This document shows positions 11,045 through 17,765 of a DNA stretch of 64,000 nt, piece by piece. The notes beneath the pieces were generated by a model. The model searched no databases, had not been told where the DNA came from, and worked only from the letters and a program-made list of their open reading frames with translations. A program made the translations under genes and the position numbers. Position 1 is the stretch's first letter. Every line of letters starts with the position of its first letter. The stretch comes from Bacillota bacterium (GTDB lineage: Bacteria; Bacillota; Sulfobacillia; UBA8153). Location of the stretch: positions 4,563 through 68,562 of the forward strand of contig JBFLYN010000005.1 in NCBI GenBank assembly GCA_040756655.1, read 5' to 3'.

Positions 11045-11722
11045 CTATACCTGCAACGTGGAAGCTCCTACCGCCCGCCGCAGCTTCTTGACCTGCAGTG
11101 CCCTATCTGGGGCTCCGAATATGAAAGAGCCCGCAACCAAGACGGTGGCTCCCGCTCGCACGACCTGTACGGCCGTCTCCTCGTTGATGCCACCATCCAC
11201 CTCCAACTGGCAGGTGAGGGCCAGGTCATGCAGGTGTTTTCTGGCCTTCTCCACCTTGGGCACCACTGACGCGATGAATCGCTGCCCGCCGAAACCAGGG
11301 TCGACTGTCATCAGCAGTAGCAGGTCCAGGCTGGATAGGACTTCCTCGACAGCGACCAGGGGGGTGGCCGGGTTAATGGCCACGCCGGCCTTGGCCCCAT
11401 GGTGGCGGATAGTCTCCAGGGTTCGGTGCAGGTGGGTGCAGGCCTCGGCGTGCACGGTGACCAGGTCGGCACCGGCACTGACAAAGTCAGCCACCAGGCG
11501 CCGGGGCTCTGCCACCATCAGGTGCACGTCCAAAAAGAGCCGGGTGTGGGCCCGGACCGCTTCCACCACCCGTGGTCCAAAGGACAAATTGGGAACGAAT
11601 CGCCCGTCCATGATGTCCAAGTGCAAAAGGTCGGCTCCCGCCGCTTCCACATCCTGGACCTCCCGGGCCAGGTGGGCGAAGTCCGCCGACAAAAGCGATG
11701 GGGCGATCTGCACCACGCTCAT
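11045..11722 (-). CDS. rpe: ribulose-phosphate 3-epimerase
   Basis: MSVVQIAPSLLSADFAHLAREVQDVEAAGADLLHLDIMDGRFVPNLSFGP... matches Rpe. The start overlaps the rsgA stop in an ATGA arrangement. Confidence 0.95.
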   Translation of the reverse strand: MSVVQIAPSLLSADFAHLAREVQDVEAAGADLLHLDIMDGRFVPNLSFGPRVVEAVRAHTRLFLDVHLMVAEPRRLVADFVSAGADLVTVHAEACTHLHRTLETIRHHGAKAGVAINPATPLVAVEEVLSSLDLLLLMTVDPGFGGQRFIASVVPKVEKARKHLHDLALTCQLEVDGGINEETAVQVVRAGATVLVAGSFIFGAPDRALQVKKLRRAVGASTLQV

Positions 11723-12606
11723 GAATACTTCCGCCTTTCGAATTCCTCGATCTCCTCGAGGAAAGCCAGGTAGTTGAGGTAGCGGCTCGGGGCCAACCGG
11801 CCCGCTTCCACTTCTGCCTTGACGGCGCAGTCTGGTTCGTGCCGGTGCAGGCAGTCGGGAAACCTGCAGTCTGGCTGCAGTCCAGCCATGTCCGGGAAGT
11901 ATGAAGCCAGCTCGAACTTGTCCAGAAAGTCCAGGTCCAAGCGGCTAAAACCCGGAGTGTCGGCCACCAGGGCTGCGTTCCCTACGTCCAAAAGCTCCAC
12001 CCGCCGGGTGGTGTGCCGCCCCCGGCCGCTACCTTGGCTTACCCGGCCCACCCGCAGTTCCAGGCCGGGTCGCAGCGCATTGAGGATGCTGGATTTCCCC
12101 ACGCCGCTCTGCCCGGCCATTACCGATACCCGGCCGGCCAGCTCAGCGGCCAGCTCGGCTAGCCCGATGCCGCCGTTGGCGCTGATGGCAAGGGTCCGGT
12201 AGCCGGCCCCGCCATAGAGAGCAAGGAAATCCTGTACCTCTGAAGGGCGGCAAAGGTCCAGCTTGTTCAGGCACACGAGAGGGTCCAGATCCTGGTGGGC
12301 TACGAGCAACAGGAGGCGGTCCAAGAGCGGGAGCTGCAAGTCGGGGTTTTTGATGGTCACCACTACCACGGCCTGGTCCACGTTGGCCACGGGCGGGCGG
12401 ACCAGCTGGTTGCGCCGGGGGAGGATCCCGGTGATCACGCCACCTGGGCCGGGGCCGTCCTCGTAGCGCACCCAGTCGCCGGTTAGCGCAGAGAGGCCTT
12501 CCTTCCGGAAACGGCCCCGTAGTTTGCAGCTGACGATTTCCTCACCGTCCTGGACTTCGTAGACGTCCGAGAACGACCGGACAATTCTCCCGGTTCGCTC
12601 CGACAG
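11719..12606 (-). CDS. rsgA: ribosome small-subunit-dependent GTPase A (RsgA/YloQ); start codon uncertain
   Basis: The C-terminal GTPase and zinc-finger region (AGQSGVGKSSILNAL, CRFPDCLHRHEPDC) is clear. The N-terminal OB-fold (GRIVRSFSDVYEVQDGEEIVSCKLRGRFRKEGLSALTGDWVRY) is encoded directly downstream of, and in frame with, the prkC stop codon, with no ATG/GTG/TTG in that stretch. The 5' end given here is the CTG at 12606. Confidence 0.8.
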   Translation of the reverse strand: MSERTGRIVRSFSDVYEVQDGEEIVSCKLRGRFRKEGLSALTGDWVRYEDGPGPGGVITGILPRRNQLVRPPVANVDQAVVVVTIKNPDLQLPLLDRLLLLVAHQDLDPLVCLNKLDLCRPSEVQDFLALYGGAGYRTLAISANGGIGLAELAAELAGRVSVMAGQSGVGKSSILNALRPGLELRVGRVSQGSGRGRHTTRRVELLDVGNAALVADTPGFSRLDLDFLDKFELASYFPDMAGLQPDCRFPDCLHRHEPDCAVKAEVEAGRLAPSRYLNYLAFLEEIEEFERRKYS

Positions 12607-12627
12607 TTCACACCACTCCCTTGTCCA

Positions 12628-14580
12628 CTACGGCGTGGGCGTGAGGATCTGCTCGGACCACACCCGGTCGCCGACTTTGATCTGCAGCAGAGCCTGGGCA
12701 CCGTACCACCTGACCGTGCGGGTTACCTCCTGGCCACCCATGTGCACGCCCTTGTAGATAACGCTGGCACCAGCAGTGTCGTAAAGGATCCATTCCACCA
12801 CCACCGCGGTGTCGTTATCCCGGTCAGTGGGCACCAAGAACCTGATGGTTTTTTGGTTGGGAGGAGTGACCGGCCCCTTGCTGTACCAGAGCTCTACCTC
12901 CGTGCCCTCGAGCACTTCGTCACCGGGCTCGGGCAACTGGCGAGTTACCACGCCGAGGGGCTGGTCCGAGTATTCCTGGTGCACCTCGCCCTCCTGCAGG
13001 TGCAGGCCGGCCAGTCGCTGAAGCACTTCGTTGACCTGCTGGCCGCGGAAGTCCGGAACCACCACTACCCGCGCCTCGGGACCGAGGCTCACGCGGACGT
13101 CCACGAGGGTTCCCGTACCCACCCGGGTCCCCGAGGGCAGGCTTTGGCTGATGATGGCGCCCTCCGGGATCTCAGGATGGTACTCATAGGTAATGTTGCC
13201 CAGGGCCAGACCACTGCTGATGAGCCTGACATTGGCATCTCGTTCGTTTACGCCCCTAAGATCGGGCACCACCGCCAACGGCAGGCCGAGGCTGACCACC
13301 AGCTTGACTGAGCGCCCCTTGCGCACCAGCGTACCGGGTTCCGGGATCTGCTCGATGACGTAGTTGGCCGGGACCTGGTCGTCGTACCTGTTGGCCACCT
13401 GTTCGGCCGTTAAACCTCTATCCCTGAGCACGTGCTGGGCTTGCAGGTAGACCATGCCGGTAACATCGGGCACCTCCAGGGTGGGTACATTGAGCCAGTC
13501 CCAGACCAGGTAGGCCCCGGCGGCGCCCAGCGCCGACAGCACCAGCAACACCAGTAACACCGCAACCCAGGGCCGTGTCTTGCGCCGGGCCACCGGCAAC
13601 TCCTCCTCGTCCTCGTCCTCAGTGGGCCGGGCCGGGGCTGGCTCAGAACGGGTCCGGGCCCTTGCTTCTGTGGCTCGCGGCGGCGATTTCTCCACCCGAC
13701 GGGGCGGCAGCGGCGATGGTCCGGGAGGATCCGGGGCGATCTGGGCCCCGGCGGGGGCACGCACTTTGGCCAGGCACCGCCCGATGTCTGCCATCATGTC
13801 GCCAGCCGACGCGTAGCGTTCCAGCTGGTTTTTCTCCAGTGCCCGCATGACCAGGCGATCCACGTCCAGGGGAATAGTCAAATTCAGGGAGCGGGGCGGC
13901 ACCACTCTCTCGTGCATGTGCTTTAGCGCGATGGTGACCGCACTTTCGCCCTGGAAAGGCAGCGTGCCGGTGAGCATTTCGTAGAGCACCACGCCCAAAG
14001 AGTACAGGTCCGACTTGGCTCCCGTGAGCCCGCCCCGGGCTTGCTCCGGGGAGAAGTAATGAACGGAACCTATGATGGTCCCGGTATGGGTCAGCGTGGC
14101 ACTGGTCATGGCCCGGGCGATGCCGAAATCGGTAACCTTAACCTTGCTATTGCGAGTTAGCATGATGTTGTGGGGCTTGATGTCCCGGTGTATGATCCGG
14201 TTCTGATGGGCGTGTTCCAGGGCTTCACAGATCTGATAGGCAATATCCAGAGCCTCTACCACCGGCAGGGGCTTGCCTTCCTGGATCCGCTCTTTGAGGG
14301 TGCGCCCGTCGATGAGTTCCATGACTATATAGTGGGTGTCGCCGTCGTTTCCCACATCGTAGATGCTGACAATGTTCTGGTGGGAAAGACTGGCGGCGGC
14401 CTGCGCCTCCCGCCTGAAGCGCCGCAGGAAGTCCTCGTCGGTGGCAAACTGGGGACGCAGCACTTTCACGGCCACCGGGCGGTTGAGCACGTTATCGTGA
14501 GCGCGGTACACCAGGGCCATGCCGCCCCCGCCGATCTTGGCCACCAGTTCGTACCGCCCACCCAGCTTCTGGCCGATCAC
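12628..14580 (-). CDS. prkC: Ser/Thr protein kinase PrkC with a TM segment and extracellular PASTA repeats
   Basis: A Hanks kinase domain (VAVKVL, HRDIKPHNIM, DFGIA), a Pro-rich linker, a TM helix and three PASTA-like repeats are present. The GTG start overlaps the prpC stop in a GTGA arrangement. Confidence 0.95.
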   Translation of the reverse strand: MIGQKLGGRYELVAKIGGGGMALVYRAHDNVLNRPVAVKVLRPQFATDEDFLRRFRREAQAAASLSHQNIVSIYDVGNDGDTHYIVMELIDGRTLKERIQEGKPLPVVEALDIAYQICEALEHAHQNRIIHRDIKPHNIMLTRNSKVKVTDFGIARAMTSATLTHTGTIIGSVHYFSPEQARGGLTGAKSDLYSLGVVLYEMLTGTLPFQGESAVTIALKHMHERVVPPRSLNLTIPLDVDRLVMRALEKNQLERYASAGDMMADIGRCLAKVRAPAGAQIAPDPPGPSPLPPRRVEKSPPRATEARARTRSEPAPARPTEDEDEEELPVARRKTRPWVAVLLVLLVLSALGAAGAYLVWDWLNVPTLEVPDVTGMVYLQAQHVLRDRGLTAEQVANRYDDQVPANYVIEQIPEPGTLVRKGRSVKLVVSLGLPLAVVPDLRGVNERDANVRLISSGLALGNITYEYHPEIPEGAIISQSLPSGTRVGTGTLVDVRVSLGPEARVVVVPDFRGQQVNEVLQRLAGLHLQEGEVHQEYSDQPLGVVTRQLPEPGDEVLEGTEVELWYSKGPVTPPNQKTIRFLVPTDRDNDTAVVVEWILYDTAGASVIYKGVHMGGQEVTRTVRWYGAQALLQIKVGDRVWSEQILTPTP

Positions 14581-15332
14581 ACGCCGTCACCTCCCCCCGC
14601 CCGGCCAATGCCGGCCACCAGCACGGTAATGTTGTCGTTGCCGCCCCGGGCGTTGGCCATTTCCACCAGCTGGTCACCTAGCCCGGCCAGGTCCCGGCAA
14701 CCGTTTATCGCCTCCAATATCTCTTCGCTGGCCACCAGGTTGGTCAGTCCGTCGGTACACATCACAATTATGTCACCATCACAGACGGCGTGCTCGGCAA
14801 TGTCGATGTTCAGCCGGGGTTCGGTGCCCAAGGCCTTGGTAAGGAGATTCCGCTGGGGATGGCGCATGGCTTCTCGTTCTCCCAGCTCGCCGTTTTGCAC
14901 CATGGCTCCTACCACCGAATGGTCCGCAGTCAAGCGCTGCAGCCGGCCCTTGCGGACCAGGTAGGCCCGGGAGTCGCCCACATGCGCAAGCACCAGCCGG
15001 TCTGCGGCCCACAGGGCCGCGGTAAGGGTGGTGCCCATGCCGGAGTAGCCAAAAGTGTCCAGCGCCACCCGGTACACCCGCTCGTTGGCGGCGGCACACG
15101 CCGTAGCCAGGGCGCACTGCAGGTCTTCGCCTCCGCCAGCATGCACCTCCAACCATCGCCTGGTCTCTTCCACCGCCAGCCGGGACGCCACTTCTCCGGC
15201 CTCAAAGCCGCCCATGCCGTCGGCCACCGCCATGAGCACCGGCCGGCACCCGGTCATGAGCTGGCACAGGCAGTAATAGTCCTCGTTGGCCTCGCGGACC
15301 CGCCCCACATCACTGGCGACGCTTGCCAGCAT
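14577..15332 (-). CDS. prpC: PP2C-family Ser/Thr phosphatase (PrpC/Stp)
   Basis: From the ATG at 15332 the protein reads MLASVASDVGRVREANEDYY...DGMGG...GDSRAYL...MCTDGL (PP2C motifs). A GGGGAG RBS lies 8 nt upstream. Confidence 0.9.
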   Translation of the reverse strand: MLASVASDVGRVREANEDYYCLCQLMTGCRPVLMAVADGMGGFEAGEVASRLAVEETRRWLEVHAGGGEDLQCALATACAAANERVYRVALDTFGYSGMGTTLTAALWAADRLVLAHVGDSRAYLVRKGRLQRLTADHSVVGAMVQNGELGEREAMRHPQRNLLTKALGTEPRLNIDIAEHAVCDGDIIVMCTDGLTNLVASEEILEAINGCRDLAGLGDQLVEMANARGGNDNITVLVAGIGRAGGGDGV

Positions 15333-16377
15333 CCACTTCACTCCCCGACCATCTCTGCCTAAGCTGGCCGCATGCACCATCTACCTGGGTGCCTAGTTCG
15401 CGGCGCACTGTCACCGCCGTTCCAAAACCTTGGAGCGTGGCCACAAACGCCCGCACCCGTTCTGGAGGACTGCGGCGATAGCCACTGGCTTCCACCGGGT
15501 TCAAAGGTATGAGGTTCACATGACCTTGCACTGCCTTGACCAGCCCGGCCAGCCTCCTGGCATCCATTTCCCGGTCGTTGATCCCATCCACCAGGACATA
15601 CTCAAAGGTCACCCGGCGTCCGGTGGCCTTGGTATAATCGGCACAAGCCGCCACCAGTTGGTCGATGCTGGCCCGGCCCGCCGCCCCGGGCATGAGCCGG
15701 CGCCGGGTTTCATCATCGGCGGCGTGCAGGGAAACTGCCAGGTTCACCGGCAGTCCTTCCCGGGCCAGCCTCCGGATTTCCGGTACCATTCCGCAGGTGG
15801 AGATGGTGATGGACCGGTGACCGATGCCGGTTCCGGCCGGGTCGTGCAACTGCCGGATGGCCTTGAGCACTGGTTCGTAGTTATCCAGTGGTTCCCCGGT
15901 GCCCATCATCACCACCCGGCTCACACGCTGCCCGCTCCGGTCTTCGCTGATCCTCAATACCTGATCGACGATCTCGCCGCTGGAGAGGTTCCTTGCCCAT
16001 GACCTGCCGGAGGCGCAGAACTGGCAACCCATCCTGCACCCGGCCTGTGATGAGACACAGGCGGTAAGGCCGAACCGGTAGAGAAGCGCTACGGCTTCCA
16101 CCACCAACCCGTCTTCAAGGCGCATGGCATACTTTACCGACCCCGAGCCCTCGTCCTCGCGCCGCTCGTGTATCCAGCAGGCATCCAGCAGGGCCCCAGC
16201 GGATAGCTGCTCCCGGAAAGCTGCCGGCAAGTTGGTCATGGAGTCAAAGCTGCGGGCCTGCGCCGCATACATCCAGCGCCAAAGTTGTTTGGCCCGGTAG
16301 GGAGGTTGACCGTACGCTTTGCAGACCTGTTCCAGCTCACTCAGGGACTTGTCTTTGAGCCGCACCAGCCTGTTCAC
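15310..16377 (-). CDS. rlmN: 23S rRNA (adenine2503-C2)-methyltransferase RlmN (radical SAM)
   Basis: The GTG at 16377 has a GGAGAGG RBS. The protein starts VNRLVRLKDKSLSELEQVCKAYGQPPYRAKQLWRWMY and contains the CxxxCxxC motif (CRMGCQFC). Confidence 0.9.
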   Translation of the reverse strand: MNRLVRLKDKSLSELEQVCKAYGQPPYRAKQLWRWMYAAQARSFDSMTNLPAAFREQLSAGALLDACWIHERREDEGSGSVKYAMRLEDGLVVEAVALLYRFGLTACVSSQAGCRMGCQFCASGRSWARNLSSGEIVDQVLRISEDRSGQRVSRVVMMGTGEPLDNYEPVLKAIRQLHDPAGTGIGHRSITISTCGMVPEIRRLAREGLPVNLAVSLHAADDETRRRLMPGAAGRASIDQLVAACADYTKATGRRVTFEYVLVDGINDREMDARRLAGLVKAVQGHVNLIPLNPVEASGYRRSPPERVRAFVATLQGFGTAVTVRRELGTQVDGACGQLRQRWSGSEVDAGKRRQ

Positions 16378-16421
16378 TCCTGACCTCTCCTCACTATTCG
16401 TCCTTTTGACGGGCTTTCCTG

Positions 16422-17765
16422 CTAGGTATATTTGGCCAGTCTTGCCATGAAAAACCCGTCGGTGCCGTGGCGTTGGGGCCAGAGCTCTACGTATCCCCGG
16501 TCGGTCACGGCCCCTGTCAGCGAACTTGGGAGCCAAGGCCGGGGGTCGTCCAGCCGGAACTGGGGGTGGTCTTGCAGGAAACCTTCCACCACCCCGGGTC
16601 CTTCCGGCCCGGTCAGGGTACAGACGCTGTACACCAGCACCCCTCCGGGTCGCACGCAGGCGCTGGCTCCTTCCAGGAGCTCTCGCTGGAGGCGAGTAAG
16701 GCCGGGTATGTGCCGGGGCTTTTTGCGCCACCGCGCATCCGGGCGGCGCGCCAGCACACCCAGGCCAGAGCAGGGAGCATCCAGCAGCACCCGGTCAAAG
16801 ACCCAGCCTTGTGGCAGACGCCTGGCGTCTCCCTGGGTAACTTCTACGTGGCAAAGCCCAAGACGAAGGGCGTTTTCGCGAATCAGCTGCAACCGCTGCT
16901 CGTTGATATCGTTGGCCACCACTCGCCCGTCCACGCCTACCAGTTCGGCCAAGTGCATGGCCTTCCCGCCCGGCGCCGCGCAGGCGTCCAGCACTTCCTG
17001 GCCGGATTTAGGATCCAGGAGCTGGGCCACGATCATGGACGCTTCGTCCTGGACCTGGAAATGTCCCTGGGCAAACCCGGGTACCTGCCGGATGTTGCCC
17101 GGTGCTAGGAGTTCCACCGCCGCCGGGTGGTGAAGGCCGGTCTTCCAGCGGATGCCCTCGGCGTCCAGGCACCGGGTGAATGCGTCCACCCCGGTGCGGA
17201 GGGTGTTGATGCGAACCGTAAGTCGGGGCGGCTGGTTGTTCCACCGGCATAGCGACGCGGTCTCCTCAAGGCCGATCCTGTCCAGAAACACCGCCACAAT
17301 CCACTCGGGATGGGAGTGCACCAAGGCCAGGTGCTGGGCAGGGCTCTCGTCCAGGGCCGGGTATGGGAGTTCTTCTGCCCTGTGCCGGGATAGCCGGCGG
17401 AGAACGGCATTGACCAACCCGGTTAGCCAGCGCGGCTGGCGGTGGAGCAGCTTGACGGTTTCGTTGACTGCCACCGGGCCCGGGATGTTCTCCATGTACA
17501 GCAGCTGGTAGGCACCCAGCCTAAGAGCCGCCCTGACCCATGGGTCACAGCTGGCCAGCGGGCGGTTGAGATAGCGGGACAGGGCCCAGTCCAGCGTGTT
17601 TTGCCGCCGGACCGTCCCGTAGGCCAGCTCCGTGGCCAGTCTCCGGTCTGGCCCGGTCAGCTCCGGCAGGCCTTGAAGTACCGATTCCAGCGCCAAGTCG
17701 GCGTAGGCGCCCCTGGTGTCCACGGCGTGGAGAGTCCGGAGCGCCGCCTGGCGCGCGCCGGCCAC
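16422..17765 (-). CDS. rsmB: 16S rRNA (cytosine967-C5)-methyltransferase RsmB (Sun)
   Basis: GTG start at 17765. An N-terminal NusB-like domain (ARQAALRTLHAVDTRGAYADLAL) is followed by a SAM-dependent m5C methyltransferase domain (DACAAPGGK, PCSGLGV). Confidence 0.9.
   Translation of the reverse strand: MAGARQAALRTLHAVDTRGAYADLALESVLQGLPELTGPDRRLATELAYGTVRRQNTLDWALSRYLNRPLASCDPWVRAALRLGAYQLLYMENIPGPVAVNETVKLLHRQPRWLTGLVNAVLRRLSRHRAEELPYPALDESPAQHLALVHSHPEWIVAVFLDRIGLEETASLCRWNNQPPRLTVRINTLRTGVDAFTRCLDAEGIRWKTGLHHPAAVELLAPGNIRQVPGFAQGHFQVQDEASMIVAQLLDPKSGQEVLDACAAPGGKAMHLAELVGVDGRVVANDINEQRLQLIRENALRLGLCHVEVTQGDARRLPQGWVFDRVLLDAPCSGLGVLARRPDARWRKKPRHIPGLTRLQRELLEGASACVRPGGVLVYSVCTLTGPEGPGVVEGFLQDHPQFRLDDPRPWLPSSLTGAVTDRGYVELWPQRHGTDGFFMARLAKYT

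Follow-up and report, generated by a model that had tools for sequence, protein, structure and literature searches.

In Escherichia coli, infC and pcnB, both of which begin at AUU, are the only genes whose near-cognate start codons have been confirmed, and the codons CUG, AUU, AUC, and AUA support about 1 to 2% of the initiation observed at AUG (Hecht et al., 10.1101/063800). In Staphylococcus aureus, Ribo-RET has located the starts of infC (AUA), cvfC1 (AUU), and ccpN (AUA), where a strong extended Shine-Dalgarno (SD) sequence accompanies about 10% of the output of AUG (PMC13009471). Furthermore, initiation complexes formed on CUG are less stable than those on AUG, GUG, or UUG (PMC11497404). 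Very few natural CUG starts have been validated in bacteria. The present study concerns rsgA (also cpgA or yjeQ), a gene for a GTPase of small-subunit biogenesis, in a 64,000-nt stretch of contig JBFLYN010000005.1 from an uncultured bacterium of the Bacillota (hereafter, the window). Here, rsgA follows prkC on the minus strand and has no canonical start codon in front of its conserved N-terminal domain. Judging from the sequence, we put a probability of roughly two in three on translation starting at the CUG at position 12606, directed by an SD sequence, to give a 295-residue RsgA with a complete OB domain. A literature search for a non-canonical rsgA start found no paper on the subject; it returned only the work of Sharma & Anand, on initiation fidelity in an rsgA deletion strain.

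The arrangement resembles that of infC and pcnB, in that a translation-related or housekeeping gene with a near-cognate start behind a good SD sequence would be limited at initiation and sensitive to proofreading by IF3. It differs from infC, as the codon is CUG and not AUH (H being A, C, or U), and conservation in rsgA is patchy, comprising several independent lineages and one clade, whereas the near-cognate start of infC is, to our knowledge, near-universal. Initiation of the RepFIB plasmid protein RepA at CUG is the example cited for the bacterial genetic code table; it is likewise a bacterial protein started at CUG with fMet, but a plasmid replication protein and not a chromosomal ribosome-assembly factor. 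With ccpN (AUA in S. aureus and Bacillus subtilis) and cvfC1 (AUU in S. aureus), the window gene shares its occurrence in Bacillota and a non-canonical start that would be set by a strong, well-spaced SD sequence. In contrast, those starts are AUH codons that were mapped experimentally, whereas the start of the window rsgA is predicted from sequence, and rsgA is not named in the main text of PMC13009471. As for the gene itself, the CpgA/YloQ system of B. subtilis has the rlmN-prpC-prkC-rsgA-rpe order that we find on the minus strand of the window, and the same architecture of OB fold, circularly permuted GTPase, and zinc finger. However, rsgA begins with a normal ATG in the two cultured Bacillales of our survey (L001, Melghiribacillus; L003, Lentibacillus).

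The start of rsgA in the window

The first-pass annotation had claimed that rsgA shares the frame of the prkC TAG stop (12630-12628) and that this frame holds no ATG, GTG, or TTG from the TAG down to GTG 12471. Reading the sequence codon by codon confirmed both claims, and the coordinates, codons, and peptide (GRIVRSFSDVYEVQDGEEIVSCKLRGRFRKEGLSALTGDWVRY) that had been given are all correct. After the TAG, the minus strand reads TGG ACA AGG GAG TGG TGT GAA CTG(12606) TCG GAG CGA ACC GGG AGA ATT(12585) GTC CGG. The Pfam profile RsgA_N is matched over its whole length (1-54 of 54, E=4.5e-14) by residues 12-65 of the post-TAG translation, that is, 12594-12433; with GTG 12471 as the start, most of this OB domain would therefore be missing. 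The protein database holds the window rsgA only as a 250-residue call from GTG 12471 (P0001; two contigs, different runs), from which the OB domain is lost. Alone, the start-free stretch is only mildly unusual, with 2.5% of the 52-codon segments in the coding open reading frames (ORFs) of the window being free of ATG, GTG, and TTG. The anomaly is its placement, with an in-frame stop on one side and a conserved N-terminal domain on the other; from the upstream stop to the conserved N-terminus no canonical start is available in frame, which is how a near-cognate start is recognized.

Apart from its start, rsgA is an intact gene of the RsgA/YjeQ/CpgA family of small-subunit biogenesis GTPases, as judged by profile, OB fold, permuted G motifs, and a Cys3-His zinc finger. 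Its product scores 232.6 bits against the NCBIfam model TIGR00157 (cutoff 100) and matches Pfam RsgA_GTPase with E=1.5e-54. Among solved structures, it is closest to B. subtilis YloQ (1T9H, E=5.7e-67), with which it aligns from the anchor glycine onward. The reading frame is open over all 295 codons, and none of the catalytic or zinc motifs is damaged; the zinc-finger residues C247, C252, H254, and C260 are invariant in an alignment of 24 sequences.

A sequencing or assembly error had been offered earlier as one way out of the anomaly. An indel would then conceal a normal in-frame GTG start, and a one-base deletion near 12610 would indeed restore GTG GAA CTG TCG. However, two further assemblies from different runs have the same prkC-rsgA junction. 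One (L022, SRR29635773) is 100% identical to the window over 6753 nt, and the other (L023, SRR22388167) is 99.6% identical, with 27 single-nucleotide polymorphisms and no indels over 6.7 kb. Since these 27 mismatches come without gaps, L023 represents a different strain; its junction carries one of them, which turns AAGGGAG into AAAGGAG, a better SD sequence. Moreover, the site near 12610 does not lie in a homopolymer run. The error is thus effectively excluded. The organism is uncultured and was found only in Logan metagenome assemblies. A scan of the GTDB representative set with the RsgA peptides of the window found no genome of the same species (best match, 48% identity); among relatives that carry a name, Clostridiales bacterium UBA8153 is the nearest, with an RsgA identity of 69%.

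The 43 codons from E 12600 to GTG 12471 were compared with those of four relatives of 68-71% protein identity. The proportions of differing nonsynonymous and synonymous sites (pN and pS) were 0.12-0.15 and 0.63-0.81, and the ratio of the corresponding rates (dN/dS) was 0.07-0.12 where dS was computable (L024, L026, and L027), the synonymous sites being near saturation. For the remainder of rsgA the ratio was higher (~0.2). This strong purifying selection on the OB region indicates that the region is translated. Where it cites Daigle & Brown 2004, PMC4436671 reports the OB fold to be essential for 30S binding and for stimulation of the GTPase.

The 21-nt spacer between prkC and rsgA contains a single SD-like element, AAGGGAG, located 9 nt upstream of CTG 12606. 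The SD score of this codon is 18, and score and spacing are within the range of the strong SD sequences of the window, whose spacings are mostly 5-9 nt, a statistic that takes the best SD sequence among many candidate starts and is only indicative. An equally good match precedes 6 of the 822 internal CTGs in the window (0.7%). The offset of CTG 12606 from the anchor glycine, -5, is among the usual offsets of canonical rsgA starts (-3, -2, and -5) and is used by 10 of 89 such starts. Besides, residue conservation (x-E-R-T-G-R-[IV]-[IV]-R-S-F-S-D) opens directly after this codon, and nothing is conserved upstream of it. In the mechanism that we propose, AAGGGAG would position the 30S subunit at CUG 12606, the initiator tRNA would read this codon as fMet, and rsgA would be expressed from an intact operon gene as a 295-residue protein with the complete OB domain. 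Since CUG initiates poorly (~1-2% of the AUG level in E. coli reporters), rsgA is probably translated at a low level, which would suit a catalytic assembly factor. It is from these features that we infer both the use of CUG and the low expression.

The first-pass annotation had listed CUG and AUU together as possible rare starts, and only the first half of that suggestion finds support, owing to SD geometry, alignment with the TTG, GTG, or CTG of relatives, and the conservation boundary. Initiation at another near-cognate codon, chiefly ATT 12585 (giving M-V-R-S-F-S), is very unlikely, even though initiation at ATT has been proven for the bacterial genes infC and pcnB, AUH starts occur in the rsgA of one clade described below, and a GGGAG lies at 12591-12587. 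This GGGAG is only 1 nt away from the ATT, whose best SD score is 11. A start there would also forfeit E-R-T-G-R, a motif that all five close relatives share, together with the first three positions of the RsgA_N profile, and not one of the 89 canonical starts in the survey has its offset of +2 from the anchor glycine.

Several points weigh against initiation at CUG 12606. In E. coli, CUG initiates very weakly, and neither the wild-type nor the M1 initiator tRNA is efficient on it. As CTG is the commonest codon in the window (5.4% of codons), the mere presence of a CTG means little, and the aligned CTG, TTG, or GTG of the relatives could equally represent a conserved Leu or Val residue. In two of these relatives (L026 and L027), an in-frame ATG stands two codons upstream, so that use of CUG is not forced there. 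The out-of-frame GTG 12611, only 4 nt from the same SD sequence, may capture most initiations. Finally, the window and L023 strains differ by only one synonymous change in rsgA, a divergence too small for constraint on the window's own branch to be measurable.

Junctions of close relatives and competing explanations

An alignment of orthologous prkC-rsgA junctions had been suggested as a check on whether the arrangement is conserved, and its outcome is divided. The junction is kept in the second strain, but sister lineages have TTG or GTG, or CTG with an ATG upstream; past the strain level, maintenance of a near-cognate arrangement is seen only in an unrelated clade (the L005 clade, see below). 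In the relatives compared (L024-L028, 68-71% identical), the window CTG aligns with the TTG that is the called start in L024/L025, with the second GTG of L028, and with a CTG in L026 and L027. The TTG must be the start in L024/L025, because the upstream ATG is out of frame. The distance from TAG to this NTG is 21, 17, 18, 18, and 17 nt in the window, L024/L025, L026, L027, and L028, respectively, and is thus not uniformly a multiple of three, and the spacer from GGAG to NTG is 7, 8, or 9 nt. The ATG or GTG placed 2 nt past GGAG shares the rsgA frame in three lineages but not in two others. With distance and frame varying in this way, the segment behaves as an untranslated spacer and not as coding sequence. 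In the window, one extra base shifts the counterpart of this ATG or GTG, GTG 12613, out of the rsgA frame. Relative to L026 (2975-3010), L024/L025 (L024:2975-3005) show a 1-nt deletion, ATGCTTCTGGCC to ATGCTTTGGCC, by which the ATG is out of frame and the TTG start is created, a change that mirrors the window's 1-nt insertion.

The same insertion could be read as the beginning of decay. It would have destroyed the ancestral start and left rsgA, which is dispensable in model bacteria, either silent or reduced to a 250-residue fragment without OB domain, on its way to a pseudogene. Deleting one base at ~12610 puts GTG 12613 in frame (GTG GAA CTG TCG), as would fit a frameshifted ancestral start; gene callers give only the 250-residue product, and divergence between the two strains is too low to show selection on the terminal branch. 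Yet the 295 codons are open with catalytic and zinc motifs intact, the SD sequence is retained and is even improved in L023, and GTG 12471, from which the fragment would start, has no SD sequence (score 7). In addition, the OB fold is needed for 30S binding, and a start-less arrangement has been stably kept in a clade of 56-99% identity and has arisen in at least three further lineages. Decay therefore appears quite unlikely.

A further possibility retains CUG 12606 as the start codon and changes the way in which ribosomes reach it. Ribosomes loaded at the SD sequence could start at the out-of-frame GUG 12613, stop at the UGA, and reinitiate at CUG 12606 one base downstream; alternatively, those ending at the prkC UAG, 21 nt upstream, could reinitiate at the CUG. 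The elements are present as GTG GTG TGA A CTG, and in each of L026, L027, L028, and L119 an ATG or GTG follows the SD core at a distance of 2 nt. Elsewhere in the operon, stop and start codons overlap (GTGA, ATGA), and in the L005 clade the AUH start of rsgA overlaps the prkC stop. However, the start-stop element is not conserved, as the upstream ATG is lost (AAG) in L030 and opens a 9-codon out-of-frame ORF in L024. Initiation at an SD-to-start spacing of 2 nt is also expected to be very inefficient. We hold reinitiation to be improbable. Frameshifting from the out-of-frame GTGs 12616, 12613, and 12611 was considered and rejected, with no slippery site available within 12 nt; in particular, a -1 shift from GTG 12611 would have only 12 nt ahead of the conserved E-R-T-G codons, and these contain no slippery heptamer. 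A prfB-like +1 shift at GTG-TGA was also rejected, since it would need the initiator tRNA to re-pair on UGU.

Programmed readthrough of the prkC UAG to yield a PrkC-RsgA fusion, another of the earlier suggestions, has not been borne out. It could draw on rsgA being in frame with the TAG with no stop between, on prkC ending in TAG in all six related lineages, and on the phosphorylation of CpgA by PrkC in B. subtilis (PMC4478028). However, a shared frame has a one-in-three chance of arising and is lost in L024/L025, L028, and L029, and TAG, which ends 19 of the 45 long ORFs in the window, is an ordinary stop. The part of PrkC after its transmembrane segment is the extracellular PASTA region (PMC4478028), so that a fused RsgA would lie outside the cell. 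Among the best 240 RsgA homologues listed, all are 215-337 residues long and none is fused or extended. The junction RNA is not stabler than its shuffles (z = -0.99) and belongs to no Rfam family, the Rfam scan of the whole window having found nothing, and the linker W-T-R-E-W-C-E is not conserved (R to K in L023). Readthrough is thus effectively excluded. Reassignment of UAG to pyrrolysine was ruled out by stop-codon usage. The long ORFs of the window end in TGA (21), TAG (19), and TAA (5), TAG being unusually frequent, and the TAG of prkC is common to all six related lineages although the C-terminal residues of the kinase differ.

Probable near-cognate rsgA starts in other Bacillota

The 5′ ends of rsgA were surveyed in 118 loci. 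Among the unselected loci (two samples), 4 of 93 have no canonical rsgA start, whereas for rpe, taken as the control, the corresponding counts are 0 of 64 unselected loci and 0 of all 78 assessable ones. With numbers this small, and with three of the four loci belonging to one clade, an enrichment of near-cognate starts in rsgA over rpe is suggestive but not proven. Canonical starts are distributed as ATG 72%, GTG 12%, and TTG 12% in rsgA and as ATG 83%, GTG 11%, and TTG 6% in rpe. A CTG behind a good SD sequence, with no canonical start before the OB domain, was found in three more lineages (L030-33, L038, and L106). For each of the three, the closer relatives have canonical starts and the other start-less lineages are more distant, so that these events look independent. 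In L119, the sister of L030, the junction is GGGGTG-ATG-GTA-CTG; in L030 this ATG is gone and the spacer is longer by one base, just as in the window when set against L026.

A different form was found in the L005 clade (about 20 protein clusters of uncultured Bacillota, with L005, L007, L008, L120/121, and L122; 56-99% identical to L005), where rsgA lacks a canonical start and would start at ATC, ATC, ATT, ATA, and ATT, respectively, at the modal start offset of -2. This codon overlaps the prkC stop (TAATC, TAATT, ATAG) and is preceded by the conserved GGAAGAGGTGTATCC. The variation of its third position within AUU, AUC, and AUA is a further likeness to infC. The overlap recalls the coupling of genes through ATGA or TAATG, as do the GTGA and ATGA of the window operon, but the prkC-rsgA junction of the window differs in having a 21-nt spacer with its own SD sequence. 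The coupling of prkC and rsgA proposed in the first-pass annotation is indirectly supported, in another form, by the L005 clade; the window itself, with 21 nt between TAG and CTG, has no such overlap. Gene callers fare poorly in this clade. Among the 23 protein-cluster representatives with an identity to L005 of at least 56%, the called start falls on scattered internal codons (residues 10 to 80) in 19, a spurious extension has been added upstream in two, the call of P0123 opens at residue 5, and the N-terminus of P0142 is normal. Among the matches listed, all RsgA proteins less than 52% identical to L005 are full length.

Some loci were ambiguous or had to be set aside. In L116 (1474-1500), an in-frame GTG lies inside a perfect GGAGGTG, and translation may in fact begin at the ATC that follows 6 nt later. 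In L017 (2815-2850), only ATT and ATA follow GGAGGG, and an ATG is one frame off; an indel in this metagenome-assembled genome is possible, which makes the case ambiguous. P0083/L034-36 was rejected as a start-less rsgA, having a normal GTG 6 nt after AGGAGG, as was L051, whose locus is cut by a contig end.

A near-cognate start is a known, rare device; what the present comparison would add is its recurrence in rsgA across lineages. With CTG in at least four lineages and AUH throughout a clade, all within one gene family, the comparison suggests that weak or IF3-sensitive initiation has been selected for in a ribosome-assembly factor. A more specific reading would be that the near-cognate start (CUG in the window; AUC, AUU, or AUA on the prkC stop in the clade) is a selected regulatory device like the AUU of infC, by which the quality of 30S subunits feeds back on RsgA synthesis. 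Since IF3 and the mature 30S decoding center discriminate against near-cognate codons, RsgA synthesis would rise when 30S subunits are immature or deficient in proofreading, or when IF3 is limiting. If true, this would constitute a homeostatic feedback from 30S assembly quality to the output of a late 30S assembly factor, and in the clade with overlapping codons it would also tie RsgA to the translation of PrkC, a cell-wall-sensing kinase. We regard this as unlikely, because deletion of rsgA in E. coli did not raise initiation at CUG, AUA, or AGG, whereas deletion of rbfA, ksgA, or lepA did (PMC6868393). The idea that ribosome-assembly state feeds back on the synthesis of an assembly factor through start-codon stringency nevertheless becomes testable. 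For annotation, the consequence is more immediate. Gene callers truncate the RsgA of the window to 250 residues, without the ribosome-binding OB domain, and scatter the starts of the L005 clade over 80 residues. Through such mis-called starts, databases would hold many wrong RsgA models, and near-cognate starts would go uncounted.

The operon and its neighboring genes

The features of the locus and of the compared junctions are collected in Table 1. PrkC is a Stk1/PknB-type PASTA kinase, having a profile score above the cutoff, a kinase domain, a transmembrane segment, and PASTA repeats. A scan for promoters and terminators found no promoter-like or terminator-like site in the prkC-rsgA interval. 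Four-nucleotide overlaps occur at 14577-14580 (GTGA, prpC/prkC) and 11719-11722 (ATGA, rsgA/rpe), and prkC/rsgA is the only junction with a spacer.

Table 1. Features of the prkC-rsgA region and of related junctions (positions refer to the window unless a locus is named)
Feature	Positions	Strand	Basis or remark
rpe, ribulose-phosphate 3-epimerase	11045..11722	-	its ATG overlaps the rsgA TGA as ATGA
rsgA (cpgA/yjeQ), proposed full-length coding sequence, 295 residues + TGA	11719..12606	-	profiles, structure match, motifs
C-terminal zinc-finger motif CRFPDCLHRHEPDC, residues 247-260	11827..11868	-	motif reading; alignment
G3 motif DTPG, residues 216-219	11950..11961	-	motif reading; alignment
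G1/P-loop GQSGVGKS, residues 165-172	12091..12114	-	motif reading; columns invariant in alignment
G4 motif NKLD, residues 114-117, circularly permuted GTPase	12256..12267	-	motif reading
RsgA N-terminal OB-fold domain, PF16745 full profile	12433..12594	-	almost wholly upstream of the first canonical start
GTG, first canonical in-frame codon	12469..12471	-	SD score 7; choice of gene callers
Out-of-frame ORF, 42 codons, from GTG 12611, 4 nt after the rsgA SD	12483..12611	-	possible competing initiation site; not conserved in relatives
Assembled junction sequence GTGGTGTGAACTG	within 12560-12660		
ATT, alternative near-cognate codon	12583..12585	-	judged unlikely
CTG, proposed rsgA initiation codon, (f)Met-S-E-R-T-G-R-I-V	12604..12606	-	SD, alignment, offset
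Out-of-frame GTG GTG TGA	12608..12616	-	GTG 12613-12611 corresponds in position to the ATG/GTG that follows GGAG by 2 nt in L026, L027, L028
SD-like AAGGGAG, 9 nt upstream of CTG 12606	12616..12622	-	SD scoring; AAAGGAG in L023
prkC TAG stop, same frame as rsgA	12628..12630	-	direct sequence reading
prkC, PASTA-domain Ser/Thr kinase, 650 residues	12628..14580	-	ORF; NF033483 608 bits vs cutoff 450; TAG stop
PrkC transmembrane segment, residues 338-360	13501-13569	-	transmembrane coordinates
prpC, PP2C phosphatase	14577..15380	-	its TGA overlaps the prkC GTG as GTGA
Window junction			TAG-tggacaagggagtggtgtgaa-CTG-tcg-gag-cga
L024/25 junction			TAG-cgaaaaggagagatgct-TTG-gcc-gag-cgc
L026 junction			TAG-cgagaaggagagATGctt-CTG-gcc-gag-cgt
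L027 junction			TAG-cgaaagggagagATGctt-CTG-gcc-gag-cgg
L028 junction			TAG-cggagggagcaGTGtgg-GTG-gag-gag-cga
L030-33, AAGGGGTGA-agtacc-CTG	L030:1440-1465 (also L031-L033)		four runs
L038, CTG after well-spaced SD, prkC TAA in frame	L038:760-785		single contig
L106, AGGAGG, 9 nt, CTG	L106:170-195		single contig
L005-clade start sites	L005:2985-3000; L007, L008 same region; L120/L121:1085-1100; L122:1105-1120		

The longest ORF of rlmN (15310-16731, minus strand; 473 residues, GTG start) carries an Arg/Pro-rich N-terminal extension of ~120 residues, which is absent from the calls of 349-355 residues on related contigs. The true start of rlmN probably lies further downstream than the GTG of the longest ORF.

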